Part shown: piece by piece, positions 194 through 61,851 of the stretch
Position numbering within the stretch: the first letter of the stretch is position 1
Layout of the letters: each line of letters starts with the position of its first letter
Source: Thermodesulfobacteriota bacterium
GTDB taxonomy: Bacteria; Desulfobacterota_D; UBA1144; Nemesobacterales; JAJCZQ01
Reading direction: 5' to 3'
Length of the DNA stretch: 64,000 bases
Assembly: GCA_965215275.1 (NCBI GenBank)
Contig: OZ244044.1
Coordinates: 1,024,001 to 1,088,000 of the forward strand
Position numbers and translations under genes: made by a program
The notes under the pieces: generated by a model
Seen by the model: only the letters and a program-made list of their open reading frames with translations
Told to the model about the DNA's origin: nothing
Database searches by the model: none

Positions 194-2781
194 ATGAACA
201 TCTTATTTAGAATAATTTCCCCCCCCCCCTTCTATCTAAGTTAGTAATTCCCTTTTTCTTTCTTCTGTGTTTTGTATCCATTGAGGCATATGGCCAGATT
301 AATAACTGTGACACCAGTACTACCGGTTTCAATGATCCCTTATACGGCTGTCAGTGGCATCTGAAAAATACAGGACAGCTTGGGACTGTAACTACCTCTG
401 GAGAAGATATAAACGTAGAAGGGGTCTGGGATGATAACACATTCGGTGCTGGAATTAACATAGCGGCGGTAGATGACGGTATGCAAACCGGTCACGAGGA
501 CCTTACTGATAATGTAAATACCAGCCTGAATCATGATTATTCAGGGAACAATGACGTATACGACCCTTCAAAAGCTCGTGGAACACATGTAGCAGGCATT
601 ATAGCAGCAGCGGGAGATAACAGCCTTGGAGTAAGAGGCGTAGCACCACAGGCAGGCATCTATAGTTATAACTTAGCTGCTAACTTCAGTAATGCTAACG
701 CAAAAGATGCTATGATCCGTAACAGAGATATAACGGCTGTATCCATCAACAACTGGGGACCGGAAGACACGTCTGTTCTTATAGAGGCTTCATCAGAGTG
801 GGAGGAAGGAGTGGGAATGGGTATAAGAGAATGGTTAGGTGATAAAGGGATATTTTACGTGTGGGCGACTGGAAACAGAGGTGACAACCGCGGTCAGGCT
901 AATTTTGATGAGTATTCCAACTACTACGCAGTAACCACCGTATGTTCGGTGGATGGAGAAGGGAACAAGAGCTCTTTTTCAGAAGAGGGAGTAAATCTGT
1001 GGGTATGTGCTCCAGGTGAAGATATTACAACTACTGATAATAACAATGGATATGTTTTTGATGCGAGTGGAACGGCATATTCAGCAGCGCAGGTTGCAGG
1101 TGTGGCGGCACTGATGAGAGAGGTAAACAGTGACCTTAGCTGGAGGGACCTTAAGCTGATACTTGCAGCTTCAGCTCGTAAGAACGACGCTTCTGACACA
1201 GACTGGGAGACGGGAGCACATAAATACGGTTCTGATACAGAAAGTTATAATTATAATCCCAAGTACGGTTTTGGTGTGGTAGACGCTGAAGCGGCAGTAG
1301 GACTTGCTGAAAGCTGGGCTAGTGTTGGAGGGATGAGAGCCTCGACCATTTCCTCTGGGCCTATTAATATGGCAATCCCCGACCGCACACCTGGAGTAGA
1401 CGGAGAAGCTACTGCCATACTGACCATACCAGATACTTTTCCTTCTTTTACAGAGTTTATAGAGATAGAGATCAGTTTCACTCATCCGTTCTTTCCAGAA
1501 CTGAAAATACAGATAACCTCCCCTGACGGGACTGTGTCGCAACTTACTGAGGAACATTCAAGAGGAGCTTCACACAGCTTTGCTCACACAGACAGAACTC
1601 ATCGTTTTGGTTTAGCCAGGCACCTTGGAGAAGACCCTGCCGGAGAATGGAGTTTGAAAATATCTGACACTTCTATTGGAGATACAGGGACTTTACACTC
1701 ATGGAGCATTAGAGTCTATGGGCATAAGACCGGAAATACAGTGCCAGGCTTTGGCAGTGAGACGATAGATAATAAGGAGTATATAATAACGGGCAGTGCA
1801 ATAACAACAGAGACGCTGCCTGCTGCAACTAACGGAAATGGAACACTAACTTACAGTCTGAAACCTGCATTACCAACTGGACTGGACTTTGATAAAAACA
1901 CCAGAGTGTTAAGTGGAACACCCACTACTGCGACGAGCAGGACTATTTATACATATACAGTTACTGATACAGATAGAGATACGGATGAGTTGACGTTCAG
2001 TATCACTATATCATCTGACACGGAACCGAGCTTCAGCAGTGAGACGATAGATAATAAGGTGTACATTAACGGCATTACAGCAGTAATGGAAATACTGCCT
2101 GAAGCAACGGGAGGGAATGCTCCATTAACTTACAGTTTAAGCAGTGGTTTACCCGCTGGACTGGACTTTGATAAAAACACCAGAGTGTTAAGTGGAACAC
2201 CCAATGTTGGTAATCCAAGTTCACTTCCTATAAGTGTTACTCATACATATACAGTAACGGACGCAAATGGAGATACTGCAGATTTGACGTTCAGTATCAC
2301 TACAGAAGAAGACAGCGACCCGGACTTCAGCGGTGTGACAATTCCTGCTCGGGTGTACACGGGGGGAGAGATAACGCTTCCTGCTGCAACGGGAGGGAAT
2401 CCACCAGTTACTTACAGTATAACACCTCGTTTACCACTTGGATTGAGTTTTAACGGTAACACCAGAAAGATAAGTGGCACACCCACCCGTGCATCATCTG
2501 CTGCTACTTACATGTATACGGCAACGGACAGGAATGGAAACACGGATACATTGGATTTCATGCTCAGTGTAGAGATTTCTTCTGCTCCGCCGCCAACAAG
2601 ACCACCAACAACACGAAGACCAGGAACGTCAGGTACTGATTCAGGCGGAGGTGGAGGAGGATGTGCTGTCTCAGATCAAAACAACTTTGTTCCTGATCTG
2701 CTCGGAGCAGTGGCATGTCTGATACTTATACCTGTATCAGTAGTGCTCAGAAGGAAGAGAAGCAATCCTATAAAAACTTAG
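194..2781 (+). CDS. Secreted S8 (kexin-like) subtilase homolog + P-domain + 3 putative Ig repeats + C-terminal sorting signal; frameshifted at C11 (219-229); catalytic His and Ser substituted
   Basis: The ORF-track frame (481-2781) is open back to 211 and encodes a signal peptide plus DPLYGCQWHLKNTGQ. The ATG194 frame stops at 242-244, and one extra C joins the two frames. Motifs: AAVDDG, ARGTHVAG, SGTAYSAAQVAG, GGGGGGC-TM-RRKR. Confidence 0.85.
219..229 (+). repeat. poly-C (C11) tract, candidate phase-variation switch
   Basis: Lies in codons 9-12 of gene 1. C12 or C9 would restore the frame. Confidence 0.8.
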
Positions 2782-2967
2782 CAACTCAGTCCTTTCAAAG
2801 AAACGTTGAGCTAACTTAGGCCCTTCCGTCAGATATGATCCTGTTAAAAACATCGTCTTTGTTCACTCAGCATAGCTGCCTGTATAATCCCCAGTATTTT
2901 ATCAAGACAGAGGTCCTTTCCTCTTGAAACTTTAAACAACTGATATAGGGTTTTATAATATACGGTC

Positions 2968-4563
2968 ATGAGTATTTCCTTTTTCAGAGAAAAATATCAG
3001 TGGGTAACTAAATTTATCCTTGTGGCGATCGTCGTGAGTTTCATTTTCAGCTTCGGATATTTCGGAGTTTCAAGTCTGCAGTCAGGAGTTCCCACAGGCA
3101 CGGCTGCCAAGGTCAACGGAGAAAAGATACCGCTGGTACGGTTTTATAATGTCAGGGACAATCTGTACAGACAGCTCGGACTCGGACGCAGTGATACAAC
3201 GCCTGAGACAAGAAACTTCCTCAACGTTACAGCACTGCAGCAACTGGTAGAGAACAAACTGCTGGCACAAAAGGCAAGAGAACTTGGTTTTTATGTTTCA
3301 GATGAAGAACTGAGCAGATCAATAATGGATGACCCGGCTTTTCAGATCAACGGGAATTTCATAGGGGCAGAAGCGTACAGAAACACCATAAGACAGGCCT
3401 TGAACATAGACCTTGGAGAGTTTGAAAAAACTTACAGAGAAGAGCTTTTGATCATGAAGCTCAGAGAACTGATCAGAAGTTCAGTAAAGATAAGCGAGGA
3501 TGAACTTTATAATATATACAAGGTCCAGAACGAGAACGTGAGCCTTTACTACGCTGAATTCAGGACCGGAGACTTCACGGACGCTGCATCCATCTCCGAT
3601 GATGAGATCAGAGAACATTATGATAAGAACAGGGAATATTATCTAACGCCTGAAAAAAGAAAAATCAAGTTCGTAAAGGTATCAAGGGAGGACTTTATAA
3701 ACAAGATCCATATAGGGGACGATGATATCAGGTCTTATTATAAATCCTACAGCGACGAATTTAAGGATGAAGACGGGAATTTGAAAAGCATAGATGAGGC
3801 AAGGCCGGAGATATCCGGCAAACTGAAGGCCAAACTGGCGGACAGGGACTACAGAAGTTTTGCACTTCTTCTTTCAAGGAACGAACGACTTAAGCCAGTT
3901 GATAAAATACTGGAGGAAAACGCACTTGGAAGTTCCATGGAGTCGGGGCTTTTTTCCATAGACCAGAATACGGAAGATATTCCACAGGATATACGCAAAC
4001 AGGCGTTCCAGCTTGGAGCCGGAGAAACCTCCTATATCAACTCTGAAGAAAATATATGGGTATTTCAACTGGCCGAGGTTAAACTCCCTGAACAGAGAAC
4101 GCTTGAAGAAGCAAGAACAGATATCGCAGGTACTTTAAGCAGGGTCAAAGGACGTAAAGCCGCAGAAGCCGCCGCAAAGGCAATGTTGAACCTGCTTACC
4201 AAATCCACAGAGTCCTATAAGGACGTGGCAGAAGGGCTGGGCGTCAGCGTTAATGAAACGGCCCCGTTCTCAAGGACCGAACCTCCAGAGGCCCTGGACG
4301 TGGAAGACCTGAAATTCGATGCTTTTTCTCTAAGTAACTCAAGACCACACGGAGAAAAAGTATATCAGAAAGAAGGTTCATACTTTGTGATCTCCCTGAA
4401 GGAGAAGTTCAATATAGCCCCCGAAGAGTTCGAAGAAGAAAAGCCTGAGATAAAAAACACCCAGCTCATACAAAGGGAAAGAGAACTGCTGAACGAATGG
4501 CTTGCCAGGCTCAGAGAAAACGCAGAAGTAATTCCAAATCCAGGTATTTTCAATTCACCTTAA
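2968..4563 (+). CDS. ppiD: PpiD/SurA N-terminal domain membrane-anchored periplasmic chaperone
   Basis: N-terminal TM, AAKVNGEKI, LLAQKARELGFYVSDEEL, PAFQINGNF; typical PpiD layout. Confidence 0.8.
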   Translation: MSISFFREKYQWVTKFILVAIVVSFIFSFGYFGVSSLQSGVPTGTAAKVNGEKIPLVRFYNVRDNLYRQLGLGRSDTTPETRNFLNVTALQQLVENKLLAQKARELGFYVSDEELSRSIMDDPAFQINGNFIGAEAYRNTIRQALNIDLGEFEKTYREELLIMKLRELIRSSVKISEDELYNIYKVQNENVSLYYAEFRTGDFTDAASISDDEIREHYDKNREYYLTPEKRKIKFVKVSREDFINKIHIGDDDIRSYYKSYSDEFKDEDGNLKSIDEARPEISGKLKAKLADRDYRSFALLLSRNERLKPVDKILEENALGSSMESGLFSIDQNTEDIPQDIRKQAFQLGAGETSYINSEENIWVFQLAEVKLPEQRTLEEARTDIAGTLSRVKGRKAAEAAAKAMLNLLTKSTESYKDVAEGLGVSVNETAPFSRTEPPEALDVEDLKFDAFSLSNSRPHGEKVYQKEGSYFVISLKEKFNIAPEEFEEEKPEIKNTQLIQRERELLNEWLARLRENAEVIPNPGIFNSP

Positions 4564-4788
4564 AACCTTTGTTATAGTCCAGCCCTGATATCATCTTTTG
4601 GGAACTATATAGGAAAGTTGACAAAAATGAGGGGATTACCCTGAACGGTTGACAGGCTGTATTTTACCTTTATTATTATCAGTGGGAACTGAATACCGTC
4701 AATTACAGTGAACGGGATAAAAAGAGAATGATCCGTGCGTCCTGAATATCATTGTCATTGCAGGAAAGGAAAGAAAAGGAAATTACAC

Positions 4789-4818
4789 TTGACATTCGTT
4801 CATAATACGAAGTAAAAT
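4789..4818 (+). promoter_or_regulatory. sigma70-type promoter with dyad TTCGT-N7-ACGAA in the spacer
   Basis: TTGACA 4789-4794, TAAAAT 4813-4818, inverted repeat 4795-4811. Confidence 0.65.
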
Positions 4819-4827
4819 ATCAGTGTT

Positions 4828-7800
4828 ATGAAAAATTTCATGAAAAATTCAAACATAAAAACAAAAACACGTAGTTCCATTACCCCCCCCCCGTGTATAC
4901 CTGACCTTTCAGTCTGGTATAAGTGTTTTTTAAGAACAATGTTTAAGATAATCCCCCCCCCATCTAAGTCATTACTAACTTTAGTCTTTATTCTTCTGTT
5001 TATACTGGTAATAGCTGCAAAAGGGCAGAGCAGCCTGGAAGAAACATTATCTGAATGCAGAGGCATCAGTGCAGACACGGAAGATCCGTTATACGGATGT
5101 CAGTGGCATCTGAAGAACACGGGGCAGTTAAGTTTTTCCGGAAATAGAATAACTGCAGGAGAAGATATAAACATAGAGGGGGTGTGGAACGAAGACGTAT
5201 ACGGTACCGGAATTAACGTAGCAATAGTAAGTGACGGTATCGACCTTTCACATGAGGACCTTTCTGCAAACGTCCGTTCCGGACCGAACTATGATCTTTC
5301 TGACAGTTCATCCTTTAGTGGGACAAGAGCGGCAGGAGTAACAGCAGCAACTGGATATAACGGACTGGGAGTAAGAGGAACAGCACCTGGTGCGAGTATA
5401 TACAGTTACAGGTTATCCGGTGATATCAGTGAAGCGGACGCGGTGGTCCGTAATAAGGAAATAACAGCAGTATCGGTTAACGGCCGGGGATCTGAGGACG
5501 GAGCTTTTTTTCAGGAGGCTTCATCTTCCTGGGAAGAAGGAGTGGAACTTGGTATAAAGCAAGGGTTTTACGGTAAAGGGGTGTTTTACGTCCGGGGAGT
5601 AGGGGACGGGCATGAAAGAGGAGATCAGGCTAATTTTAATGAATATTCCAGCTATTACGGAGTAACAGCCGTCTGTTCAACGGACGGCTTTGGAAAGAAG
5701 AGTATTTTTTCAGAAGAGGGAGTAAATCTGTGGGTATGTGCACCTGGTTCTGATATTGTAACTACTGATAACAAAAACGATTACGTTGTAACTTCCGGAA
5801 CATTTCTATCAGCTTCACAGGTTGGAGGAGTGGCAGCACTGCTGAGAGAGATAAACGGGAATCTGAGCTGGAGGGATATAAAGCTTATACTTGCGGGTTC
5901 AGCACGGCAGAACGATTTTTTTGATATGAGCTGGGAGACTGGAGCTGTTAAATACGGTTCTGATACGGAAAGATATAATTCTAATCCTAAGTATGGTTTT
6001 GGCGTGGTAGACGCAGAAGCAGCTGCAGAACTTGCAAAAAGCTGGAAAGGCGTTGGAGAGATGAGGACCATTACAGCTTCTTCAGATAATGAACTGACAA
6101 TTCCTGATGGAGATGGAGAAGCGGACGGGGTCCTTGTTTCCAGACTTATGATACCGGACCTTGAAGAGGTAACATTTACGGAGTTCGTTGAAGCTGAGCT
6201 TGTTCTTTCGTGTGACTGCTTACAGGACCTTAATATACAGATAACCTCTCCTTCCGGGACAGTATCTGAACTTGTGCGGGAGGTTGTAAGGGGATCTTCG
6301 AATGAAGAAGAAAACTGCGTCAGTTACCTGAGAAGAACACATCGTTTCGGGTCGGCAAGACACCTCGGAGAAGACCCTTCCGGAGAATGGATCCTTCATA
6401 TAACTGATACTGCTTATGGAGATGAAGAAAATGAAGAAAACACCGTTACCCTGCACTCATGGAGCGTTAAGGTGTATGGACATTTTTATCAGGGATCTGG
6501 CAGTGAGATCACTCCTAAAGCTTTAACCTTCGGCGGTGCGACGATCCCAACCCAGAATTATTTTGTAGGAGAAGCAATAACACCAGTAATGCTGCCTGAG
6601 GCAACCGGGGCAAGCGACATAACATACAGTTTTAATCCTGCTTTAGCAAGAGGATTGGAATTTGATCAGGATACCCGAACTATAAGCGGAACACCAGCTA
6701 TTACTCATGTGTCAGGTCGTTTGTATTCATATGTTGCAAGAGGTGGCGGACGGATTGTAACTATACCTTTTACTATTAGAATTAGCCCTCGACGAGTGCC
6801 GACCTTCGGCAATCAGACGGTAGAAAATCAGGTTTTTGTTAATGGTTCAGCAGTAACGTTAACTCTGCCTCAGGCTACCGGAGGTAACGGAACTTTAAAT
6901 TACAGTTTAACTAATAGTATAGGTGATCCAATTAAAATTAATGGATTGGATTATAACGAAAACACCAGAACGTTAAGTGGAACGCTCAACGTTTCTCCAA
7001 GTGGATTACCTATAACTCAAACTTATACCTACAAGGTAACTGATGATGACGGTGATTCTGACAGTATTACTTTCTCTATTACTATTACTATAGAAGCGAA
7101 CTCAGAGCCGAGCTTTGGTGGTCAGTCTATCCCAAATCAGATATATATTGAAGGGACTACGGCAAACCTTCCAGTAACACTGCCTGCTGCAACGGGAGGG
7201 AATGGGACTTTAACTTACAGTTTAACCCCTTCATTACCAACTGGATTGAGCTTTGAGCCTGCTACCCGAGTGATAAGTGGAACAGCACCTGATCCTACTC
7301 CGTTTACTTTTAGAACTTTCACATATAAGGTAACGGACAGTGATGGAGATAAAGTTGAGCTGACGTTCATAATACAAATAATAAAAGACACCCAGCCAGC
7401 CTTTAATAATACGATAACAGATAAGGTGTATTATACGTTTACAGGAGTAACGGAAACGTTACCTGAGGCAGCAGAAAATAATAATCTACCTTCAACTTAC
7501 AGTTTAGTTCCTGCATTACCTGATGGACTGATCTTTACCCCTGCTACCAGAGAGATAACAGGAACACCAACTGCTGCAACGTCTGAGACTGATTATACGT
7601 ATACGGTTGCTGATCTAAATGGAGATACGGACGAGTTAACGTTCAGTATTACTGTAAGAGCAGAACCGAACACAATGCCGACCTTCGGAAGTGAAACTAT
7701 AGATAACAAGGTATATATAAACGGAGAAGCAGTAAATGAAACACTGCCTGAAGCAACGTCAGGGAATGCTCCATTAACTTACAGCTTAACTCCTGCCTTA

Positions 7801-8379
7801 CCTGCCGGATTGGATTTTACCCCTGCTACACAAGTTATAAGCGGAACACCGACTACTGCAACGTCTGAGACTGATTACACGTATACAGTAACGGACGCAG
7901 ATAATGATACAGATGAACTGGAGTTCAGTATTACAGTGGAAGAAGACAGCGAACCGGACTTCAGCGTGACGACGATAGAAGATCAGGTGTACATGGGGAG
8001 ATCAATAAGGTTGCCGGTAGCAACGGGAGGGAATGCACCGTTAGTATACAGTATAACGCCTCCCTTACCTCCTGGGTTGAGATTGGACAGAAACACAGGG
8101 ATAATAAGCGGGACGCCCGCGAGTGCGTCGTCTGAGAGGACCTACACGTACACGGTAACGGACAGGAATGGAGACATTAAAGAGTTGACCTTCAGGTTCA
8201 GTGCAGCGGCTCCGCCACCGACAGGTAGTGATTCAGGCGGAGGTGGAGGAGGATGTGCCGTATCAGAGCAAAGCAGCGTTGATGAAGATATTCCTGGAGT
8301 AATGGCATGTCTGATACTTATACCCGTGTCGGTATTGATCAGAAGGAAGGGAAGAGCTCGGATAAGGACCTGGCAATGA
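4828..8379 (+). CDS. S8 subtilase homolog (triad D/H/S all substituted) + P-domain + 6 putative Ig repeats + C-terminal sorting signal; in frame
   Basis: IVSDG, FSGTRAAG, RGVGD, SGTFLSASQVGG; P-domain (HLGEDPSGEW...LHSWSVKVYG); LPxGLxF..TRxISGTP repeats; GGGGGGCAVS-TM-RRKGR. Alternative start ATG 4939. Poly-C tracts at 4883-4892 and 4953-4961. Confidence 0.9.
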   Translation: MKNFMKNSNIKTKTRSSITPPPCIPDLSVWYKCFLRTMFKIIPPPSKSLLTLVFILLFILVIAAKGQSSLEETLSECRGISADTEDPLYGCQWHLKNTGQLSFSGNRITAGEDINIEGVWNEDVYGTGINVAIVSDGIDLSHEDLSANVRSGPNYDLSDSSSFSGTRAAGVTAATGYNGLGVRGTAPGASIYSYRLSGDISEADAVVRNKEITAVSVNGRGSEDGAFFQEASSSWEEGVELGIKQGFYGKGVFYVRGVGDGHERGDQANFNEYSSYYGVTAVCSTDGFGKKSIFSEEGVNLWVCAPGSDIVTTDNKNDYVVTSGTFLSASQVGGVAALLREINGNLSWRDIKLILAGSARQNDFFDMSWETGAVKYGSDTERYNSNPKYGFGVVDAEAAAELAKSWKGVGEMRTITASSDNELTIPDGDGEADGVLVSRLMIPDLEEVTFTEFVEAELVLSCDCLQDLNIQITSPSGTVSELVREVVRGSSNEEENCVSYLRRTHRFGSARHLGEDPSGEWILHITDTAYGDEENEENTVTLHSWSVKVYGHFYQGSGSEITPKALTFGGATIPTQNYFVGEAITPVMLPEATGASDITYSFNPALARGLEFDQDTRTISGTPAITHVSGRLYSYVARGGGRIVTIPFTIRISPRRVPTFGNQTVENQVFVNGSAVTLTLPQATGGNGTLNYSLTNSIGDPIKINGLDYNENTRTLSGTLNVSPSGLPITQTYTYKVTDDDGDSDSITFSITITIEANSEPSFGGQSIPNQIYIEGTTANLPVTLPAATGGNGTLTYSLTPSLPTGLSFEPATRVISGTAPDPTPFTFRTFTYKVTDSDGDKVELTFIIQIIKDTQPAFNNTITDKVYYTFTGVTETLPEAAENNNLPSTYSLVPALPDGLIFTPATREITGTPTAATSETDYTYTVADLNGDTDELTFSITVRAEPNTMPTFGSETIDNKVYINGEAVNETLPEATSGNAPLTYSLTPALPAGLDFTPATQVISGTPTTATSETDYTYTVTDADNDTDELEFSITVEEDSEPDFSVTTIEDQVYMGRSIRLPVATGGNAPLVYSITPPLPPGLRLDRNTGIISGTPASASSERTYTYTVTDRNGDIKELTFRFSAAAPPPTGSDSGGGGGGCAVSEQSSVDEDIPGVMACLILIPVSVLIRRKGRARIRTWQ

Positions 8380-9257
8380 GGTCCTTTCAGGGACGTTCAT
8401 GAGAGAGGACCGCGTAATGGTCCTCCCATGTACCCGTCCGCTTAAGGTAAAGGCAGCGTTACCGCGCACTGGACCGTCCCTGTATTCTGATGAGACGACG
8501 GGAGAAGCAGAGGAAGGCATCAGCACGGGTGATCTTCCGGACGTTCCGTTTACTTAGGTATACCGTTCCCCGTTATAATCCCGTTGTCAGCGTTCCCGGC
8601 AAGATACCTTTACAGGGAAAGGGAGCAGGTAGATATAAAGGCAGGTACACGTCCGGGGATCAGTCCTGAAGGTCTGAAAAGGTTCCGTATCGTGTAATTC
8701 AGCCATGGGGAGGCGTTCACGGTTCCTGGAACGGGAGGAGTTCAACGTCATGGACACGCGGACTTGCCGCTTCGGGGAAAGCGGGGACCCTGACCGAAGA
8801 AGGCAGGGAAGTGATCAGGGTTATACTGACCATGCCGACCGGTCTGAGACAGATAAGGATAAGGTCAGTAAAGGAAAAATAAAAGGTAAACCTCGGGTGA
8901 AACCTGCCGCCGCTGATCATAAAGGAAAAACAACGGGCAATGGATAGATCATCAAGGATGTTTTTAAAAACGGGATAAATCCCGCATAAACGACCTGAAA
9001 AAAACAACTAAATAAGAACTGAACAAAAGGTTTAAATTGGCAGCAGGTCCTAAAGGAGATCATTTTATAAAAGAAGTTAATGATCAAAGAAAATTATGGG
9101 ACCTGTCAACTTTCCTTTATAGTTTCCCATCTTTCATATAAGATGGGAACATTAAAAAGACGGTACAGATTGACACCTTCGTAATATACATATATTATTA
9201 AGGTCAGTGGTTTCTCTAACAGAGTTCTGAGATAAAAACAGGCTTTATCTTTTAGAC

Positions 9258-12785: not shown

Positions 12786-12897
12786 CCTTTTAAGTTTCCG
12801 TCAGCAGCCGGTTCTTCAACTACATTGCTTTAACAGCCGTTAGTTCTTATACTTTTCTTTGGTTTTTACTCATTCACGGTCACATTACTGCAACGTT

Positions 12898-17672: not shown

Positions 17673-19064
17673 ATGGATAGTGAAAAGAGGATAATTAAGC
17701 AGACGAGGACGGAACGCAGAGTGGCTGGATTGAATCACCCTTCAACTCATAAGGGTTTGGAAAGGACTTTGGACCAGCTTACCTATCTGTATAACAGCGC
17801 TCTGGAAGAAAGGAAAGAAGCGTACAAAAAATACAAGAAGCTGAAGAAGTGGGGTTTGTCAGAAGAAAGATTACAGATGTATTTCTACCCACAATGGGAG
17901 TTTGGTACTTCTTACAACAAGAAGAACAGAGTTAAATATCTGGATACAGTTTATGAAGCAGTTAACAGGTTAGTAAGTAATATCAGACCTTGCGATGATC
18001 CTGTTAACTGGAGAGAGTTAACAAAACAGGAGCTAAAGAAGAAGTCAGTCAGTTACGAAGATCAGGCGAAGTCACTGACTGAGATAAGGAATGATGTTTT
18101 ATTGAAAGGATTCAACAAGGCAGGCGTTCAGGGACAGCAAAGGACGTTAAAGAGAGTGGATAAGGCTTACAGTGATTATATTAAAGGATTGAGAGGCAGT
18201 CCGAGATATAAGAACAGCAGCAGGAAGGTAAGAAGTTTTGAAACATATACATGGGGAAATGTAAAGAAAGGTGAGAGAAGGACATATTTAACGGTAAAGG
18301 GAGTTGGGAGGATCTCATTCAGAGGAAGCATACCGGAAGGAACAAAATACATAAGGATATTAAGAACAGCTTTAAGAGTAGAGATCCAGTTTATTTACGA
18401 AACAATAGCTGGAGAGGACAGAGGACTGGACAGACCTGTAGGAATGGACCTTGGAGTAAGGAACAGGATTGCTTTATCAGATGGGTCGTTTTACAAGGGA
18501 ACTGAAGTAAGCAGAAAGAAAGACAAAAGAAAGCAAAGAGCAGTTTCAAGAGCTGAGAAAAGTTCGAACGGCAGAAAGAAGAAGATAAAGCTGCTTGGGA
18601 AGGAACATGCAAGAACAGCAATGAAGGAACATAACAAAGTTCACAGGTTAACTACAGAACTGTCAAGAGCGTATAATTTTGTTATATCAGAAGATCTGAG
18701 ATTAAGGGATATGAGCAGATCGGCAAAGGGGAACGTGGGAGATCCGGGTAAGAAAGTAAAGCAGAAATCTGGATTAAACAGGTCCTTACGGGAACAGCAA
18801 TTGGGCAAGGTATTAAATCAGCTTGAATACAAGGTTAAAAGCACTGGTGGCAAGCTGATCAGGAACCCGGCTCAATATACGTCACAGACCTGTTCTGAGT
18901 GCGGATACAGAGATAAAAGGAACAGAAAAGGAGAAGTATTTAAGTGTGTGTATTGCGGTCATAAAGACCATGCAGACACGAATGCAGCTATAAACATTTG
19001 CAATAGTGAAAAGACACTATGTCGGGTGGGACAGCCAGACTTGAGTTCCCGATGCAAGCTGTAA
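17673..19064 (+). CDS. tnpB: RNA-guided endonuclease TnpB family protein
   Basis: N-terminal YLYNSALEER helix, GSPRYK, RuvC-I GMDLG, RuvC-II ISEDL, KSGLNRS, YTSQTCSECG/CVYCG zinc finger, RuvC-III HADTNAAINI. Confidence 0.93.
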   Translation: MDSEKRIIKQTRTERRVAGLNHPSTHKGLERTLDQLTYLYNSALEERKEAYKKYKKLKKWGLSEERLQMYFYPQWEFGTSYNKKNRVKYLDTVYEAVNRLVSNIRPCDDPVNWRELTKQELKKKSVSYEDQAKSLTEIRNDVLLKGFNKAGVQGQQRTLKRVDKAYSDYIKGLRGSPRYKNSSRKVRSFETYTWGNVKKGERRTYLTVKGVGRISFRGSIPEGTKYIRILRTALRVEIQFIYETIAGEDRGLDRPVGMDLGVRNRIALSDGSFYKGTEVSRKKDKRKQRAVSRAEKSSNGRKKKIKLLGKEHARTAMKEHNKVHRLTTELSRAYNFVISEDLRLRDMSRSAKGNVGDPGKKVKQKSGLNRSLREQQLGKVLNQLEYKVKSTGGKLIRNPAQYTSQTCSECGYRDKRNRKGEVFKCVYCGHKDHADTNAAINICNSEKTLCRVGQPDLSSRCKL

Positions 19065-24068: not shown

Positions 24069-26163
24069 GTGAATAAACATTTAAGAGAAAAGTTAGAAAA
24101 AATACTAAAGCGGGAAGAGATGTTTTTAGACGATGAGACCGCGGAGCTTGATTATATAAGGATCAAACACTCTGCGGATCAGAACGATGAGAAACTTCTC
24201 TCACTCCTGTATGACGATGAGGAATTGAGAGAAAAATTCTTTACCAAAATAAAGGATATATATGTTTTCAGCACTGATAACTTCAAATTTTTTCTGGATG
24301 AAAACAAGATAGATAACTCATACACACAACTTGCTAACAGAATTGGTCTTCATGATGGCAGTGAGTTTCTTAAAAACAGAAATGAGGTGGTGATCAATTT
24401 TCCATTTAAAGACTGTGTACTACAGGGCGGGCAAAGTGCTGAAGAAGGAATGGATACTTATTTTGAATATGAAGAAGAAAAGACAAAAGCCGTACAAGGT
24501 GAAAGAGTAACCGAACCATCAGGTTACAAAGAAAAAAACCACCCAAGAAAAGAGGTATTTTTCAACTCTGTTTTAGCCCACGATGAGATAGACAGGCTCT
24601 TTGATCCCAAGGCACTGGTAAACTGGAAAAAAGTTACCAAGGACGGGGCATTTTCCCCTTATATGAAAGAGCAGTCCGAAAGGATTGACGGGGGGGGGGA
24701 GAAGTCTTCGAACGAGATGAAGACGGAACGATCAAAGAGAATTTGATCATTAAGGGCAATAATTTACTCGCTTTACATAGTCTCAAAAAACAGTTCACCG
24801 GGAAAATCAAGTTAATATATATTGACCCGCCTTATAACACTGGAAACGACAGCTTTAAATACAACGATAGTTTCAATCACTCCACTTATCTGACCTTTAT
24901 GAAAAACAGGTTGGAGGTAGCAAGGGAATTATTAAAGGAGGATGGGGTGATCTTTGTACAATGCGATGATAACGAACAAGCGTATTTAAAGGTATTGATG
25001 GATGAAATATTTGGGAGAGAAAATATCAACAGCGTTATTTCAATAAAAGTAGCCTCAGAAAGTGGTGTTAAAGTCAATGCGAACAAACCCGTACGAGTAA
25101 AGGAGCATATTTTAGTTTTTACTAAAAGCCTTGATTTTAAGTACAAAAAGCAGTTTATTCCAATAAATTCTTTTGACAAAGCTTATTCTGACTACGTTGA
25201 AAATCCAAATGACGACCCTGATAAATGGATAATTGGAAATATAAAGACCGTTTACAGAAAAGAAAATGGTTTAGATACAAGAGCACCTGTTGCAGATGCT
25301 GATTTATATAGATTTCAAGTAAAAAACAAGGATAAAGTTTTTGCTCGTAAAGATATAAGCCAACCATTAAAAAAAAGGTTTGGAGATAATCCTAATCAAT
25401 TTATTATAGTGGAGAATAAGAATGGAACAAAGTCTATACTGTGGAAAAAAAGAGAAGTAGTGTTTTATTCCAGAAAAGTTCACACAGTTGATGGAGCCTT
25501 ATGTGGTACAAAATACTTAAGCGATATGTGGACAGACACAACTTGTGATGGCATTGCTAATGAAGGAAACGTTAAACTGAAAAGAGGCAAGAAACCAGAA
25601 AGATTATTAAAAAGGATTATAGAGATGAGCACAGAGAAAAATGACATTGTGCTGGATTTCTTTTCAGGCACTGGAACTACTTGTGCCGTTGCTCATAAAC
25701 TACACAGGCAGTATATCGGTATTGAGCAATTAGATTACGGAGAGAATGACAGTAAGGTCAGACTTCAAAACGTCATTAATGGGGACAGGACAGGTATCTC
25801 AAGATCTGTAAACTGGTTGGGGGGGGGTATTTCCTCTACTGTGAACTTGCCAAATGTAACGAACTGGCAAAAGAGCAAATCAACGCTTGTAACAATTTAG
25901 GCGAGTTAGAAATTTTCTTTGATGAAATGTATGAGAAGTATTTCCTAAACTACAACTTCAGAATCAAAGAATTCAGAGAGCAAGTCGTAGGGAAGGAAAA
26001 CTTTAAAAACCTATCTTTGGACAAACAAAAAAGAATGTTCCTCATCATGCTTGATCTCAATCAATTGTACATAAATAAAACAGAAATGGCCGATGAAAGG
26101 TTTGAGATTACTCAAACGGACCAGCAATTAACGGAAGAGTTTTATAATTCCCATAATAAATGA
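24069..26163 (+). pseudogene. mod: Type III R-M methyltransferase Mod (N6-adenine, beta class), split into three frames at G10 and G9 tracts
   Basis: IYIDPPYNTG and DFFSGTGTT motifs. One extra G at 24690-24699 gives GGEVFERDEDGTIKENLIIKGNNL; one extra G at 25819-25827 gives WLGGGYFLYCELAK... running into ORF 25927-26163. Confidence 0.88.
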
Positions 26164-44162: not shown

Positions 44163-45233
44163 CTATTTTATCAAAGTCTGCAGTCGCTTCCTCATGTAAC
44201 CGTAAAAGTCCCAGGTCGCTTCTTTGTATTGTCCAAGTCTGTATTTGGCAGACCCTCTGTCATTATAAGCTATTACCAATTGCGGGTTGATCTCTATTGC
44301 CTTGTCAAAGTCTTCGACCGCTTCTTTATATTGCCCAAGGCTGACTTTAGCAAGTCCTCTGTTATAGTACTTTTTTGTAATTACTTTCTTGTAGTGTTTA
44401 AGTCTGTTTTTGGCAAGCTTTTTCTGATAGCGATCTTCTGATAATTGCTGGTTGGTATCTATTGCTTTGTTAAAGTATTCGATCGCTTCCCTGTATTGCC
44501 CAAGGCTGCATTTAGCACACCCTCTGTCATAGTAGGATCTTGCTTTATCAAAGTCTTTGGTTGCTTTCTTGTATTGCCCAAATTTAGTTCTGACAAACCC
44601 TCTTTGATAGGTAAGCCCTATAGGGTAGATCTCTATTGCTTTGTCAAAATCCTTGATTGCTTCTCTGTATTGCCTAAGTTCATAATTGGCAATCCCTCTG
44701 AGATAGTTAAGTCTCATATGCGTATATATCTGGTCTAAAACCACCGATTCATAATTGGTAATCCCTATCTGATAGATAAGCCCTATAGGGTAGATCTCCA
44801 TTGCTTTGTCATAGTCCTTGATTGCTTCTCTGTATTGCCTAATTTTATAATTAGCAATCCCTCTGTTACAGTAAGCTGCTGCAAATTGTGGATAGACCTC
44901 TATTGCTTTGTCAAAGTCCTTGACCGCTTCCTTGTATTGCCCAAATTTAGTTTTGCCAAGCCCTCTACGATAGTAGAACTCTGTATCTTGAGGGGGGGGG
45001 GAATTGGTTCCTATTGCTTGATACAAGTCCTTGAGCGCTTCCTTGTATTTCCCAAGCTCGTTTTTGGCAATCCCTCTATGATAGTAAGCTCTTGTAAATC
45101 GGGGATTGAGATGGATCGCCTCATCTAGATCATCAATAGCTTTTACGACCTCTCCTTTGTTCAAAAAGTCGTTTCCGCGTTCAAAGTATCCTTTTGCATC
45201 CTTTGGTTCTGATAAGGTATTTAATCTGTCCAT
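44163..45233 (-). CDS. Tetratricopeptide repeat protein with internal C10 tract; degraded 3' end
   Basis: Repeated YxxRGxAxxxLGQYxEAxxDFDKAIEI units. A further out-of-frame TPR (AKYYTERGFAKTRLWQYREAIKEFDKAVEIDP) lies at about 44040-44145. Confidence 0.85.
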   Translation of the reverse strand: MDRLNTLSEPKDAKGYFERGNDFLNKGEVVKAIDDLDEAIHLNPRFTRAYYHRGIAKNELGKYKEALKDLYQAIGTNSPPPQDTEFYYRRGLGKTKFGQYKEAVKDFDKAIEVYPQFAAAYCNRGIANYKIRQYREAIKDYDKAMEIYPIGLIYQIGITNYESVVLDQIYTHMRLNYLRGIANYELRQYREAIKDFDKAIEIYPIGLTYQRGFVRTKFGQYKKATKDFDKARSYYDRGCAKCSLGQYREAIEYFNKAIDTNQQLSEDRYQKKLAKNRLKHYKKVITKKYYNRGLAKVSLGQYKEAVEDFDKAIEINPQLVIAYNDRGSAKYRLGQYKEATWDFYGYMRKRLQTLIK

Positions 45234-46798: not shown

Positions 46799-48256
46799 TC
46801 ACTTTTGCTTATCTTCCAGCATTAGTACTTCTTCAGACAGTTCAAGTCCTTTGATTTCCGGGATTTCCCTTCCTGCAATTCCCTGGAGGTCACCGTACAT
46901 CCCAACCGTGGATTCTATCACGCCTCGAATCTGGGTCTCGCGCTTTGCCCATAGCTGGGTCATACGTGCCCGCTCTTTTTTAAGGTCATCCTGCATATCT
47001 GAAAATTTCTCGACAATAGCTTCAATACGATGCCGAAAATTAGGACCGGTCAAATATTTATAAACCAGCTCCGTCTTCGTTTGTTGACCTTCGGTTGCAA
47101 TTCTGGCTTTGTTAACTTCGATTAAAGATTGGCGAAGTGCAATAGCTAAAGGTACACAGTACTGAGGACCAGTAATCCATACACCTTTTACCGTACCAAA
47201 CGTCTTGATATCTTTAGGAAGTGCCTGAGAGACTATTATCGCGATCTCTGCTTTTGCGGCACGTTGGTCGTCCCGGAGTTTTGAAATCCACTTAGGACTC
47301 CACTTCTTTGTCCTTTTTGCTTCCCAAAGTATCAACCCACAATCCGTTCCTTCGGGAGACTTTACGCGTTGCAGAACATCACCACCTGATTTACCTTTGC
47401 GGACAGGTTCAATATTATCGGCAGGAAATGCGTTTTCCAGCGTTTCCTCTAATACTAATTCAAACGCTTCGCCCTGAAGTTGCTGTGAACCCTGTTCTGC
47501 TTTTCGCTTCAGATCATCAATTTGCTTGCTCATAGAGGTAATCTGTTCTTCTTTTTCGGTGAGTTTGATAGTTAAAGCCTGTTCAGCTTCGTCTTTAGCT
47601 TTTTCCCGGATGGCAGACACGGTTTCCTGAACTTGCTTTTCTACCGTTAAATCCAGTTCACGCTCCTTATCCTCAAACTCACGCTTTTTCCTTAACATCT
47701 CGGCCTCGGCTTTCTGTGCCCCCTTAAGTTTATCATTGCGTTCCTTGAGAAGTTGCTCAAGGTACGCAACTTCTTCGGATTTAGCGCTTAGTTCCTCATC
47801 AGCGGCAATTTTTGCCTTTTTTCTTTCCTCTTTTACTATTACTGCCTTTTCGGACTTGATCTTCTCAGCCACCTGCTCATCAATGTTTTCTCTATCCTTC
47901 TCGATCTCTCGCTGCTGCTGCTTTAGTTGTACTTCTCTTTTTGCAAATGATTTTTCCTTCGTTGCTAACTCGGCTTCGTATTTTTTTTGTTCGGACTTGA
48001 TCTTCTCAGCCACTTGCTCATCAATGTTTTCTCTATCCTTTTCGATCTCTCGCTGCTGCTGCTTTAGTTGTGCTTCCCTTTTCGCAAATGATTTTTCCTT
48101 CGTTGCTATTTCGGCTTCGTATTTTTTTTGTGTTGCCTGTATTAGCGGAGCAACTAAACTTTCCGTAAGTTTGATCTCTGTATTGCATTCAGGACAGATG
48201 ATCGTTGGGTCGTAACCGCCTAGTAGGATTTCTTTTGTGTCTTTATTGTCCGTCAT
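46799..48256 (-). CDS. DUF2130 domain protein (zinc ribbon, coiled coil, C-terminal nuclease-like domain)
   Basis: IICPECNTEIKL, QGSQQLQGEAFE, GDVLQ..GLILWEAKRTK, MYGDLQGIAG. Confidence 0.85.
   Translation of the reverse strand: MTDNKDTKEILLGGYDPTIICPECNTEIKLTESLVAPLIQATQKKYEAEIATKEKSFAKREAQLKQQQREIEKDRENIDEQVAEKIKSEQKKYEAELATKEKSFAKREVQLKQQQREIEKDRENIDEQVAEKIKSEKAVIVKEERKKAKIAADEELSAKSEEVAYLEQLLKERNDKLKGAQKAEAEMLRKKREFEDKERELDLTVEKQVQETVSAIREKAKDEAEQALTIKLTEKEEQITSMSKQIDDLKRKAEQGSQQLQGEAFELVLEETLENAFPADNIEPVRKGKSGGDVLQRVKSPEGTDCGLILWEAKRTKKWSPKWISKLRDDQRAAKAEIAIIVSQALPKDIKTFGTVKGVWITGPQYCVPLAIALRQSLIEVNKARIATEGQQTKTELVYKYLTGPNFRHRIEAIVEKFSDMQDDLKKERARMTQLWAKRETQIRGVIESTVGMYGDLQGIAGREIPEIKGLELSEEVLMLEDKQK
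47849..48130. repeat. 141-bp (47-aa) near-perfect tandem duplication within DUF2130
   Basis: QKKYEAE(I/L)ATKEKSFAKRE(A/V)QLKQQQREIEKDRENIDEQVAEKIKSE twice; period 141 nt. Confidence 0.92.
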
Positions 48257-48402: not shown

Positions 48403-48476
<74 letters not shown>

Positions 48477-48489
48477 TCGGCAGCGTTCT

Positions 48490-49994: not shown

Positions 49995-50050
49995 GTCAGT
50001 TGCCTGAAGTTAACTTCAAGGGTAGTTTATTATCCGGAGAGATATCGACC

Positions 50051-50488: not shown

Positions 50489-50510
50489 AAACGGATAAAC
50501 CCCTGCCGAC

Positions 50511-53046
<2,536 letters not shown>

Positions 53047-53047
<1 letters not shown>

Positions 53048-54633: not shown

Positions 54634-54759
54634 ATTACACCTCCGGAACTGGTAGGTCTGATAAAACCTGTAAAATATATGCGAGACTGGGATTTTGTCA
54701 ATTGAAAAAACGGACACGGATAACGGTCGTTTGATCATTAAAAAACTCCGGGCTGGTTA

Positions 54760-55530: not shown

Positions 55531-55587
55531 GTGATCCGGCAGAACCGGTCCACCCGTGATCCGAAGGACTGACCCAATGATATCAGA

Positions 55588-56595: not shown

Positions 56596-56689
56596 ACAGG
56601 TACTCCTTTTTTTATTTGAATATCTTGCTGTAAAATAAGAACATAATCAAATTTGCCCGTTTATATGAATTAAAAACAAGGAGAGAAAG

Positions 56690-57901: not shown

Positions 57902-58010
57902 TGTTGAACTGAAAAAACATTGACTGCCGCCGAAAAACGCTTTTTAAATAGGGAATTATATATTTATCCACTTGACATTCGTTTATAATACGAAGTAAAA
58001 TATAAATGTT

Positions 58011-61000
58011 ATGAAAAATTTCATGAAAAATTCAAACATAAAAACACGTAGTTCCATTACCCCCCCCCCGTGTATACGTGACCTTTCATCTGGATATAAG
58101 TATTTTTTAAGAACAATGTTTAAGATAACCCCCCCCCCCATCTAAGTCATTACTAACCTTAGTCTTATTTATTCTGTGTTTGATAGTAATAGCTGCAAGA
58201 GCAGAGAGCAGCCTGGAAGAAACATTATCTGAATGCAGAGGTATGAGTGCAGATGTGGAAGATCCGTTATACGGATGTCAGTGGCATCTGAAGAACACTG
58301 GGCAGTTTATTTATTCAGGAAAGGAAATAACAGCAGGAGAAGATATAAACATAGAAGGAGTGTGGAACGAAGACGTATACGGTACCGGAATTAACGTAGC
58401 AATAGTAAGTGACGGTATCGACCTTTCACATGAGGACCTTTCTGCAAACGTCCGTTCCGGACCGAACTATAGTTATTCTGAAAGAAATAATTCTGAAGAG
58501 AACAGTTCTGAAAAAGATAGTTCAGAAAGAGATGATCTTTCAGACGGTTCATCCTTTACCGGAACACGAGCGGCAGGTGTTATTGCAGCAACTGGATATA
58601 ACGGACTGGGAGTAAGAGGAACAGCACCGGGTGCGAGTATATACAGTTACAGGTTATCCGGTGATCTCAGGGAAGCGGACGCGGTGGTCCGTAATAAGGA
58701 AATAACAGCTGTATCGGTTAACGGCCTGGGATCTGAGGACGGAGCTTTTTTTCAGGAGGCTTCAACTTCCTGGGAAGAAGGAGTGGAACTTGGAATAAGT
58801 AAAGGGTTTTATGGTAAAGGAGTGTTTTACGTCTGGGGAGCAGGGGACGGTCATGAAAGAGGAGATCAGGCTAATTTTTCTGAATATTCTAATTACTACG
58901 GCGTAACTGCCGTTTGTTCAACTGACGGTTTTGGAAAAAAGAGTATTTTTTCAGAAGAGGGAGTAAATCTATGGGTATGTGCACCTGGTTCTGATATTGT
59001 AACTACTGATAACAAAAACGATTACGTTGTAACTTCCGGAACATTTCTATCAGCTTCACAGGTTGGAGGAGTGGCAGCACTGCTGAGAGAGATAAACGGG
59101 AATCTGAGCTGGAGGGATATAAAGCTTATACTTGCGGGTTCAGCACGGCAGAACGATTTTTTTGATCCGAGCTGGGAGACTGGAGCTGTTAAATACGGTT
59201 CTGATACGGAAAGATATAATTCTAATCCTAAGTATGGTTTTGGCGTGGTAGACGCAGAAGCAGCTGCAGAACTTGCAAAAAGCTGGAAAGGCGTTGGAGA
59301 GATGAGGACCATTACAGCTTCTTCAGATAATGAACTGACAATTCCTGATGGAGATGGAGAAGCGGACGGGGTCCTTGTTTCCAGACTTATGATACCGGAC
59401 CTTGAAGAGGTAACATTTACGGAGTTCGTTGAAGCTGAGCTTGTTCTTTCGTGTGACTGCTTACAGGACCTTAATATACAGATAACCTCTCCTTCCGGGA
59501 CAGTATCTGAACTTGTGCGGGAGGTTGTAAGGGGATCTTCGAATGAAGAAGAAAACTGCGTCAGTTACCTGAGAAGAACACATCGTTTCGGGTCGGCAAG
59601 ACACCTCGGAGAAGACCCTTCCGGAGAATGGATCCTTCATATAACTGATACTGCTTATGGAGATGAAGAAAATGAAGAAAACACCGTTACCCTGCACTCA
59701 TGGAGCGTTAAGGTGTATGGACATTTTTATCAGGGATCTGGCAGTGAGATCACTCCTAAAGCTTTAACCTTCGGCGGTGCGACGATCCCAACCCAGAATT
59801 ATTTTGTAGGAGAAGCAATAACACCAGTAATGCTGCCTGAGGCAACCGGGGCAAGCGACATAACATACAGTTTTAATCCTGCTTTAGCAAGAGGATTGGA
59901 ATTTGATCAGGATACCCGAACTATAAGCGGAACACCAGCTATTACTCATGTGTCAGGTCGTTTGTATTCATATGTTGCAAGAGGTGGCGGACGGATTGTA
60001 ACTATACCTTTTACTATTAGAATTAGCCCTCGACGAGTGCCGACCTTCGGCAATCAGACGGTAGAAAATCAGGTTTTTGTTAATGGTTCAGCAGTAACGT
60101 TAACTCTGCCTCAGGCTACCGGAGGTAACGGAACTTTAAATTACAGTTTAACTAATAGTATAGGTGATCCAATTAAAATTAATGGATTGGATTATAACGA
60201 AAACACCAGAACGTTAAGTGGAACGCTCAACGTTTCTCCAAGTGGATTACCTATAACTCAAACTTATACCTACAAGGTAACTGATGATGACGGTGATTCT
60301 GACAGTATTACTTTCTCTATTACTATAACGGACCTGGCCTTTGAACACTATCCTCTAACTCATCTGATTTTTGTAGCAGGGAGGCAAGTAACACCACAAG
60401 TAGAGCTACCTGAAGCAACTGGAGGGACTGCTCCATTAACTTACAGTTTAACTCCTGATTTACCTCTTGGATTGAGTTTTAATGAAGTTACGCGGGTTAT
60501 AAGTGGCACACCAACTATTGGGATATCTGATACTGATTATACATATACTGTTACTGACGCAGATGGAACTACGGTGGAGTTTACATTTATTGTTCAGATA
60601 AGAGCAAGTTTTGATAATGTAACGATAAATAATAAGGTGTATATAGTCGGTACAGCAGTAACGGAAGTGCTGCCTGAGGCAATTGGACATAATGAAACGG
60701 TAACCACCTACGGTTTAACCCCTACATTACCAGCTGGACTGGACTTTAACACGGCTACCCGAGAGATAAGAGGAACACCGACTACTGCAACGTCTGAGAC
60801 TATGTATACATACAGAGTAGATGACGGAAATGGATTCACTAATGACGATTTAACTTTCAGTATCACGGTAAGGGATGCAACTGTACCTACTTTCAGTGGT
60901 GAGACTATAGATGATCAGGAGCATACAGCAGGGGTTCAGATAACACCAGTAACGCTGCCTGAGGCAACTTCAGGAGATGCTCCGTTAACATACCGTTTAA

Positions 61001-61851
61001 CCCCTGCCTTGCCTGATGGATTGATCTATAACAATATCACCGGAGTTATAAGCGGAACACCGACTGCTGCAATGTCTGAGACTATGTATACATATACAGT
61101 AACGGATAATGATGGAGATACGGATGAACTGACGTTTAATATTGAGGTAGCAGCAAGCTTCAGCAACGTAACGATAGAAGATAAGGTGTATATAGCAGGT
61201 ACAGCAGTAACGGAAATGCTGCCTGAGGCAACTGGACATAATGGAACGGTAACCTACAGTTTAACCCCATCATTACCAGCTGGACTGGACTTTAACACAG
61301 CTACCCGGGAGATAAGTGGAACACCTTCTGCTGCAACGTCTCAGACTACTTATACATATACAGTTACTACTGGTGCAGGAGGACCTGCACGAACTTTGAC
61401 ATTCAGGATAACGATAGAAGAAGACAGCGAACCGGACTTCAGCGTGACGACGATAGAAGATCAGGTGTACATGGGGAGATCAATAAGGTTGCCGGTAGCA
61501 ACGGGAGGGAATGCACCGTTAGTATACAGTATAACGCCTCCCTTACCTCCTAGGTTGAGATTGGACAGAAACACAGGGGTCATAAGCGGGACGCCCGCGA
61601 GTGCGTCGTCTGAGAGGACCTACACGTACACGGTAACGGACAGGGACGGAGACATGAAAGAGTTGACCTTCAGGTTCAGTGCAGCGGCTCCGCCACCGAC
61701 AGGTAGTGATCCAGGCGGAGGTGGAGGAGGATGTGCTGTATCAGAGCAGAGCAGTGTTGATGAAGATATTCTCGGAGTAATGGCATGTCTGATGCTTATA
61801 CCTGTATCAGTAGTTATCAGAAGGAAAAGAAGAGCTCAGATAAAGATGTAG
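58011..61851 (+). CDS. S8 subtilase homolog (triad substituted) + P-domain + 7 putative Ig repeats + sorting signal; frameshifted at C11 (58129-58139)
   Basis: The ATG58011/ATG58116 frame stops at 58143-58145. Removing one C joins it to the main frame and restores the signal peptide seen in gene 2. Motifs: IVSDG, FTGTRAAG, SGTFLSASQVGG, GGGGGGC-TM-RRKRR. Confidence 0.87.
58471..58530 (+). repeat. 4 x 15-bp degenerate tandem repeat (SYSER/NNSEE/NSSEK/DSSER)
   Basis: agttattctgaaaga, aataattctgaagag, aacagttctgaaaaa, gatagttcagaaaga; absent from gene 2. Confidence 0.8.

Follow-up and report, generated by a model that had tools for sequence, protein, structure and literature searches.

Why would a bacterium retain, and apparently display, proteases that have lost their catalytic residues? 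The question is posed by a 64,000-nucleotide stretch of a Thermodesulfobacteriota genome (assembly GCA_965215275.1, contig OZ244044.1, positions 1,024,001 to 1,088,000 of the forward strand; hereafter, the window), which carries three subtilase-like genes. An initial annotation, made from the sequence, took them for catalytically dead paralogs repurposed as adhesins, receptors or inhibitor decoys. They belong to a family of 57 genes in the same genome, 50 of which lack at least one residue of the catalytic triad and are here called dead. In our opinion, the dead genes rather probably form a repertoire akin to the opa genes of Neisseria: non-catalytic binders of host molecules, shown on stalks, switched by strand slippage and reshuffled by gene conversion, beside a few active proteases that are not switched.

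Catalytic residues of the window genes

Gene 1 (194..2781), gene 2 (4828..8379) and gene 3 (58011..61851), all on the plus strand and numbered p33, p34 and p35 in the family, share one architecture. Pfam finds Peptidase_S8, P_proprotein and He_PIG above the cut-off in each, and the S8 domain precedes the P domain, as in the kexin/furin-like peptidases (S8B). In gene 1, a leader is followed by the S8 domain (from 334), the P domain (to 1725), three He_PIG repeats and a tail consisting of GGGGC, a transmembrane helix and basic residues. The S8 and P domains span 5083 to 6483 in gene 2 and 58261 to 59724 in gene 3; both genes have a leader with two homopolymer tracts, a stalk of immunoglobulin-like (Ig) repeats and the sorting tail. 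The stalk repeats number four by Pfam and five by motif count in gene 2, and five and seven, respectively, in gene 3. No propeptide family was detected.

Catalytic positions were read from alignments to Kex2 (motifs DDG, HGT, GN and GTS), to furin and to one intact paralog. In gene 1, the alignment to Kex2 places Asp at its usual position (472-474), Arg (CGT) at that of the catalytic His (577..579) and Ala (GCA) at that of the catalytic Ser (1075..1077), while the oxyanion Asn is kept (874-876). In gene 2 (5230..5805), the furin alignment gives Asp to Ser at 5230, His to Ser at 5317, oxyanion Asn to Asp at 5605 and Ser to Phe at 5803. Gene 3 (58408..59046) has Asp to Ser at 58408, His to Thr at 58558, Asn to Asp at 58846 and Ser to Phe at 59044. 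Thus, the triad reads D/R/A, S/S/F and S/T/F in the three genes, with the oxyanion-hole Asn present in gene 1 and replaced by Asp in the other two. These replacements are the ones called in the initial annotation, and the positions line up with both Kex2 and furin; the Asp motif of gene 1, given there as VDDG, is AVDDG, with the Asp retained as stated. In genes 2 and 3, the substrate strand SWG is also remodelled, to NGRG or NGLG.

The His of RGTH in gene 1 we take to be the usual second His of HGTH and not the catalytic one; HGTHVAG is the reading in many intact homologs. An alternative catalytic His, whether that of RGTH in gene 1 or that of a DHG motif found in other paralogs (the DRDS subclade, below), is not supported, given the position of the former and a Tyr in place of the latter in the ortholog P0010.

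Size and phylogeny of the family

The genome of the window (G000) is one 1.99-Mb contig, in which tblastn gave 58 S8 matches. These correspond to 57 genes, as p17 and p18 are a single gene split by a G13 tract. The open reading frames (ORFs) of the family total about 175 kb, or 8.8% of the genome. Six genes retain D/H/N/S, one (p14) keeps the triad with the oxyanion Asn replaced by Asp, and the other 50 are dead. Three dead subclades can be distinguished: DRxA, with 7 copies including gene 1; DRDS, with 10 copies in which Ser is kept and His is replaced by Arg; and SxDF/V, with about 30 copies including genes 2 and 3. A careful tree was built from 5 outgroups and 24 paralogs, 17 of which are dead rows (out of 50). 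All 17 form one clade (support 99/98) that is nested among the intact paralogs with p14 as its sister. A quick tree of 77 rows agrees (SH-aLRT 99 for the dead clade). Long outgroup branches were flagged in both trees, and gene conversion blurs their topology. One member, p10 (G000 401402-400302), has a segment past the catalytic Asp position that is tandemly repeated in frame (DLSHE four times).

Purifying selection and predicted fold

The initial annotation held that these pseudoproteases are kept by selection and are not decaying, and this is supported. The pairwise ratio of nonsynonymous to synonymous substitution rates (dN/dS; NG86 throughout) over the S8 and P domains has a median of 0.41 among intact genes (n=6), 0.41 in DRxA (n=7), 0.40 in DRDS (n=10) and 0.29 in SxDF (n=27). 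The tree-wide values, for which 47 dead genes were used (all but p7, p17/18 and p49), are 0.40, 0.41, 0.39 and 0.29 in the same order. A single nonsense codon was observed (p37), against about 335 expected under neutrality for the same synonymous tree length. Dead subclades with a dN/dS of 0.29-0.41 and one nonsense codon are not in neutral decay, an explanation that the nonsense count rules out. A few copies carry other lesions, namely frameshifts in p9, p14, p24 and p58 and a deletion in p49.

The fold is predicted to be retained even in the most degenerate type. An AlphaFold2 model of the gene 2 head, built from 102 sequences, has a predicted local distance difference test score (pLDDT) of 83 and a predicted template-modelling score of 0.89, and a fold search aligns it with furin and Kex2 at TM scores of 0.82-0.86 and 26-27% identity; it should be noted that the underlying alignment consists mostly of intact homologs, which favours a kexin fold. 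An earlier model of gene 1 (19 sequences, pLDDT 45) was poor and was not used. Catalytic residues lost, purifying selection and a predicted fold that is kept are together the marks of a maintained pseudoenzyme.

Poly-C tracts and reading frames

The initial annotation described the S8 and P domains as in frame. This holds for the domains themselves, which are unbroken; in genes 1 and 3, however, a poly-C tract leaves the start codon in another frame. A C11 tract (219..229) lies in the leader of gene 1, and the ATG at 194 is out of frame with what follows (MNILFRIISPPPFYLS*). Gene 2 has a C10 tract (4883..4892) and, just after an inner ATG (MFKIIPPP), a C9 tract (4953..4961), both in frame. In gene 3, the first tract (C10, 58060..58069) is in frame with the inner ATG, while the second (C11, 58129..58139) is out of frame (MFKITPPPI*). 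Only gene 2 is therefore continuous from its own ATG (ON), whereas genes 1 and 3 are frameshifted as assembled (OFF), gene 3 at its second tract. A fallback start for gene 3, the TTG at 58180, would forfeit most of the signal peptide.

Such tracts are widespread in the family. The genome has 78 C/G runs of length 6, none of 7, 6 of 8 and 133 that are longer still (139 of at least 8), although extrapolation predicts fewer than one of length 9. About 80 of these 139 long tracts belong to the family. In meningococci, the variable homopolymers are those of at least 8, according to the accessible part of PMC5084427. Leader tracts of C8-C13 are present in 49 of the 50 dead genes, singly in 21 and as two in 28. 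The fiftieth, p17/18, has a G11 just before its ATG (G000:C1:518941-518951) as well as the G13 inside the S8 domain (518332-518344) that splits it. None of the six intact genes has a 5' C/G run longer than 4. Thus, long G/C tracts are over-represented and set the frame of predicted surface genes, as is characteristic of contingency loci.

Reading frames were scored in 48 genes, a set without p14, p15 and p17/18. Eleven of them have an in-frame last tract and 37 an out-of-frame one; the share of 11 is statistically compatible with one third (p=0.17). Seven of the 11 read through from the first ATG and four do so only from the inner ATG. Where a gene has two tracts, either OFF frame of the first leads to a stop that precedes or overlaps the inner ATG; in 12 of 20 cases, this stop lies exactly 5 nt ahead of the ATG. 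The two tracts would accordingly act in series or by coupling. As the commonest OFF frame of the first tract ends 5 nt ahead of the inner ATG, translational coupling could give the 28 two-tract copies OFF, low and high states.

Reality and variability of the tracts

Tract lengths were checked against uniquely anchored short-read contigs, which bridged at least seven tracts among the matches listed. The C11 of gene 1 has the same length, with 30 letters past the tract, in contigs of runs X1, X2, X4 and X5, from two studies, although one of these runs may be the source of the assembly. Five other tracts match in X2 and/or X4, so that six of seven are reproduced, OFF ones included, and for these six homopolymer error is ruled out as the cause of the frameshifts. 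The seventh, a C12 tract, reads C11 in X2 and X4, and the X2 contig breaks there, with depth falling from 575 to 235; this discrepancy could reflect either variation or a mistake of assembly. Apparent indels at the gene 2 tracts were set aside because paralogs with near-identical flanks cross-map.

Comparison of orthologs adds a few cases. P0014 ends in PSPPPIT, which is the DNA past the p24 tract of our genome read in another frame; here, the flip is deduced from the end of the protein. Two orthologs of the ON gene p45 have a called start 60 residues downstream, which is suggestive only. The orthologs of p41 (ON) and p16 (OFF) agree with our genome. Tract length thus appears to differ between strains or samples in a small number of instances (p24 versus P0014, and one of seven tracts), and it is on these few cases that switching between strains is supported.

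Exchange of blocks between paralogs

A 1158-bp block of gene 2 (5928..7085) is identical to 59169-60326 of gene 3, and the two genes differ on both sides of it. Such a pattern is read as recent gene conversion or duplication. The read depth of one identical block is about three times that of single-copy DNA. Gene 2 also has blocks of 1404 and 1212 bp in common with p2, which lies 890 kb away. In p45, as compared with its orthologs, a patch in the loop past the oxyanion site matches the version of gene 1.

Predicted expression and surface display

A sigma70-like promoter (TTGACA-17-TAAAGT) is predicted by consensus match upstream of gene 1 (157..185), and the same box precedes most paralogs. 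The predicted counterparts are at 4789..4818 for gene 2 and at 57972..58001 for gene 3 (TTGACA at 57972; the end is approximate).

Each family gene encodes a leader resembling a signal peptide, between 0 and 15 Ig repeats and a tail with a Gly run, Cys, a transmembrane helix and basic residues. In gene 1, this tail, whose basic part is RRK, occupies 2647..2781; the counterpart Cys codons are at 8254 in gene 2 and 61732 in gene 3. The tail scores below the cut-offs of the Synerg-CTERM and JDVT-CTERM hidden Markov models (14.3 and 13.0 versus 22.5; 13.1 versus 27). The sole match to the CPBP proteases (PF02517) in the genome is encoded directly upstream of p25; it is best matched by MrtP and Mrt_core, yet stays below all myxosortase cut-offs. 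Display on Ig stalks, as the initial annotation had it, is accordingly a prediction, for which the signal peptide, the stalk, the Cys/transmembrane tail and the neighbouring CPBP gene speak.

Two further loci of the genome (L035:485-1804 and L036:407-1348) have the same leader, C tract and tail with no S8 domain; they encode PPC-like domains, in part together with an Ig repeat. Thus, the chassis of switch, stalk and tail is modular. Separately, three lipoprotein-like paralogs (L037:543-1874 and L038) carry G9-G10 directly before the start codon, in the ribosome-binding region.

Relatives and lineage

Judging from its homologs, the protease subfamily is ancestrally active. Among 68 distant homologs, 67 have D/H/N/S and one D/H/S/S. 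In 134 further 50%-cluster representatives, 145 domains were found, of which 129 have the triad, 14 lack a residue and 2 are incomplete; six dead domains occur among 44 other distant proteins. As dead domains are scattered in this way, sporadic loss is not rare in the subfamily. The special feature is the expansion in the genome of the window, not the loss of the triad itself. One protein of an unrelated genome (P0194, 3332 aa) has five tandem S8 domains, all of which lack the catalytic Asp and Ser positions in an alignment of only 27-31% identity.

Close relatives in other assemblies are of both the intact and the dead type, and triad-less ones include P0010-12, P0015, P0019, P0027, P0029, P0141 and P0149. 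None of 22 metagenome loci examined by motif has the dead motif where the motif is readable, and a search of 30 relatives gave no match better than E 7e-15. Eight of 100 genomes of the order have one strong match each; the six inspected all have intact His and Ser motifs. A contig scan of genomes with an intact paralog as the query found no relative, and no family member was found in the one congener available (G001, 80% complete). The congener has leucine-rich repeat (LRR) proteins with He_PIG stalks and lipoprotein-like leaders (L184, L185, L186 and L187). Their four loci have G9-G10 a few bases past a TTGACA box, probably in the promoter spacer. To judge by these features, the two sets would share a stalk and differ in head and switch position.

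The SecA of the genome has its best titled match in Ca. Dadabacteria CSP1-2 (65%; the next is 55%), and NCBI places Ca. Nemesobacterales in the Dadabacteria class. Nemesobacterales are termed sponge-specific in the title of a reference in PMC11008079. Marine Dadabacteria are streamlined, with few duplications, in the accessible part of bioRxiv 2020.06.22.165886.

Cleft patterns and alternative explanations

The substrate cleft was defined by motif as 64 positions; amino-acid and synonymous states were compared with the rest of the domain. In intact paralogs the cleft is diversified, with 72 amino-acid versus 25 synonymous states (p=3e-5). In DRDS copies the remodelled cleft is nearly frozen (7 versus 21; p=5e-4), and the periphery is variable.

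These patterns bear on the suggestion that the dead heads are decoys, absorbing host protease inhibitors and so shielding the 6-7 intact paralogs. Active and dead paralogs do coexist, and the heads of the gene 1 type keep Asp, an NWGP strand and, in p33 and p45, the oxyanion Asn with Ser replaced by Ala, much as a trap would. There is also a precedent in XLP1, which protects XEG1 (PMC12003678, in its accessible part). Nevertheless, some 30 SxDF copies have Phe or Val in place of Ser and a remodelled substrate strand, which should hinder the binding of canonical inhibitors; the dead clefts do not follow the diverging clefts of the intact paralogs; and most copies are switched OFF, which is hard to reconcile with constant shielding. 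The decoy idea fits only the gene 1 type, with its Ser to Ala change and preserved cleft, and genes 2 and 3 poorly, and we consider it unlikely for the family.

Alternatively, the heads might have no specific ligand and serve as folded spacers of a variable structural coat, whose switching and shuffling would help to evade phage or recognition by the host. Antigenic or phage-escape variation would be expected to involve both conversion and switching, the constraint on SxDF copies is mostly on the core, and the congener puts an LRR head on the same stalk. However, a DRDS cleft that is near-invariant despite synonymous divergence suggests a conserved ligand at least there, and the triad replacements are fixed by subclade (Arg, Phe), which is not how drift would leave them. 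Heads without any ligand are, on balance, improbable.

We think it very doubtful that some copies are still enzymes with a rewired base. The candidates are the 10 DRDS paralogs, all of which keep Asp and Ser, have a strongly conserved cleft and carry a His next to the catalytic Asp. However, this Asp+1 His is replaced by Tyr in ortholog P0010, as mentioned above, and Arg occupies the catalytic His site; as to the three window genes, each lacks a nucleophile (Ala, Phe and Phe).

Decaying duplicates or silent donor cassettes, in which tracts would be mutation hot spots of disused genes, are very improbable as well. The 37 of 48 genes with the last tract out of frame, the extensive conversion and the lesions in at least five copies of the dead clade (frameshifts in p9, p14 and p58, the p37 stop and the p49 deletion) would suit this explanation. 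Against it stand a dN/dS equal to or below that of intact paralogs, the near absence of stops and an in-frame share compatible with one third; moreover, most copies retain their own promoter box, leader and tail. Finally, an assembly artefact, with homopolymer errors and mis-assembled repeats producing the frameshifts and identical blocks, would account for the C12 tract that reads C11 in two short-read runs, but six other tracts match, an identical block has about threefold depth, triad-less relatives exist in other assemblies and residue substitutions are not homopolymer errors, so that its probability is negligible.

A probable switched repertoire of binders

In the opa-like repertoire that we favour, the leader would direct Sec export, and the Cys tail would be cleaved or anchored by the CPBP protease. 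Each gene would be switched alone by slipped-strand events, so that between about one sixth and one quarter of the set may be on show in a cell; the figure for the present assembly is 7-11 of 48. The heads are predicted to bind ligands of the host and, at the same time, to vary what is visible to phage or to the recognition proteins of the host, and the few intact proteases, mostly without 5' switches, would do the cutting.

A more far-reaching proposal, which we offer tentatively, is that in a Dadabacteria-like symbiont a surface protease of the kexin type has given rise to an opa-scale variable coat of about 50 independently switched pseudoproteases, in subfamilies with differently remodelled clefts, the active paralogs being unswitched at the 5' end. 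The cleft types of such a coat may be of the substrate-trap, conserved-ligand and blocked kinds. The coat would then be contingency-locus antigenic variation practised on pseudoenzymes and aimed, possibly, at an invertebrate host without adaptive immunity.

Several observations weigh against the repertoire interpretation. The intact genes p21 and p24 carry internal in-frame tracts, and the contrast in 5' tracts between dead (49/50) and intact (0/6) genes amounts to one evolutionary event and not to a statistical test, because being dead and having a 5' tract share one branch. In DRxA and SxDF copies, the variability of the cleft is indistinguishable from that of the remaining domain (p=0.16 and 0.66), so that the cleft gives no direct sign of a binding site in these subclades. 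It is from lineage only that we infer a host association of this genome. The within-population data consist of contigs, in which six of seven tracts are uniform across runs. In addition, the genome has an open MutS gene (868 aa) and a motif of MutL. Switch rates may therefore be low, and loss of mismatch repair is ruled out as a driver.

An automatic annotation would count 57 peptidases here, although no more than seven possess a triad and the majority of the dead copies are OFF. That about 9% of the DNA and about 80 of 139 long G/C tracts are devoted to the family is a sign that this uncultured lineage is under strong selection to vary its surface. The family members are named candidates for a role in recognizing a host and are amenable to expression. 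Pseudoproteases in large families have been described from a mite, and multi-locus antigens switched by simple sequence repeats from human pathogens. In the literature covered, which excludes most subscription papers, we found no pseudo-subtilases, whether expanded or phase-variable, in Dadabacteria or in symbionts of sponges, no combination of pseudoprotease expansion with repeat-based switching, and neither of the two in Dadabacteria.

Other features of the window

Further homopolymer tracts occur in the window. A DNA methyltransferase gene (24069-26160) lies in three frames, interrupted by a G10 (24690-24699) and a G9 (25819-25827); it is doubly OFF, a phasevarion candidate, and is followed by a 919-aa restriction-like ORF, the pair presumably being of type III. 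A tetratricopeptide repeat (TPR) protein on the minus strand (44163-45233) has an in-frame C10 tract (44992-45001, as G10), and several TPR paralogs elsewhere in the genome have the same tract and flanks.

An IS605-family TnpB-like gene (17673-19064; Pfam OrfB_IS605 and Cas12f1-like_TNB) is situated between phosphomannomutase-like and trpE-like genes. A 141-bp tandem duplication (47849-48131) was noted in a DUF2130 coiled-coil gene, and an antitoxin-type gene of the HTH-Panacea (SocA-like) kind (62231-63040) lies just past gene 3. The approximately 850 bp past gene 2 (8380-9230) have no ORF of 100 aa and no Rfam match, Rfam finding two tRNAs only in the whole window.

Comparison with known systems

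The closest analogy in genetic organization is Neisseria opa. Its paralogs are likewise dispersed, taken as ON or OFF from their reading frame and present in identical or near-identical copies, with a minority in frame (accessible part of PMC13183285); their repeat is CTTCT (PMC5084427, likewise in part). The opa products are beta-barrel adhesins encoded at 9-12 loci with a pentamer repeat, and there is no homology. The present family, in contrast, has about 50 loci with poly-C tracts, often two in series, and encodes dead kexin-like heads on Ig stalks with a Cys/transmembrane tail. The opa repeat sits in the signal-peptide coding region.

In function, the nearest parallel may be the SMIPP-S proteins of the scabies mite, a host-associated organism in which inactive paralogs of serine proteases form a large family (33 members). 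In the accessible part of PMC4031079, their S1 site is blocked and they bind host defence proteins non-catalytically. The surface by which they act is remote from the former active site; hence, the cleft need not be the binding site in our family either. Unlike the latter, SMIPP-S have a chymotrypsin-like fold and belong to a eukaryote, and that part of the paper reports no phase-variation tracts. In Clostridioides difficile CspC and CspA, a subtilase fold whose triad is degenerate has been turned to sensing or binding, alongside a paralog that is active (bioRxiv 10.1101/461657, as far as its accessible text goes). According to the same text, they differ in being soluble spore proteins of few copies, with a prodomain and with neither P domain nor stalk. 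The window genes are not CspC-type bile-acid receptor pseudoproteases (NF040808), scoring 16-21 bits against a cut-off of 675.

In domain structure, kexin and furin are the best PDB matches of the window genes by sequence and fold and share their S8 and P domains. The absence of a detectable propeptide family recalls Aeromonas ASP, which uses an external chaperone (PMC5638518, in the part accessible). The window genes differ from all of these in having lost the triad and in having a stalk and a sorting tail. The tail resembles the Synerg-CTERM and JDVT-CTERM signals that go with CPBP proteases of the myxosortase type, with a Gly-rich linker, Cys, a transmembrane helix and basic residues, and with a CPBP gene next to one member of the family. 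With both tail and protease below curated cut-offs, however, it is at best an uncatalogued relative. The family is thus comparable to opa, SMIPP-S and CspC, each in a different respect, and is a member of none.

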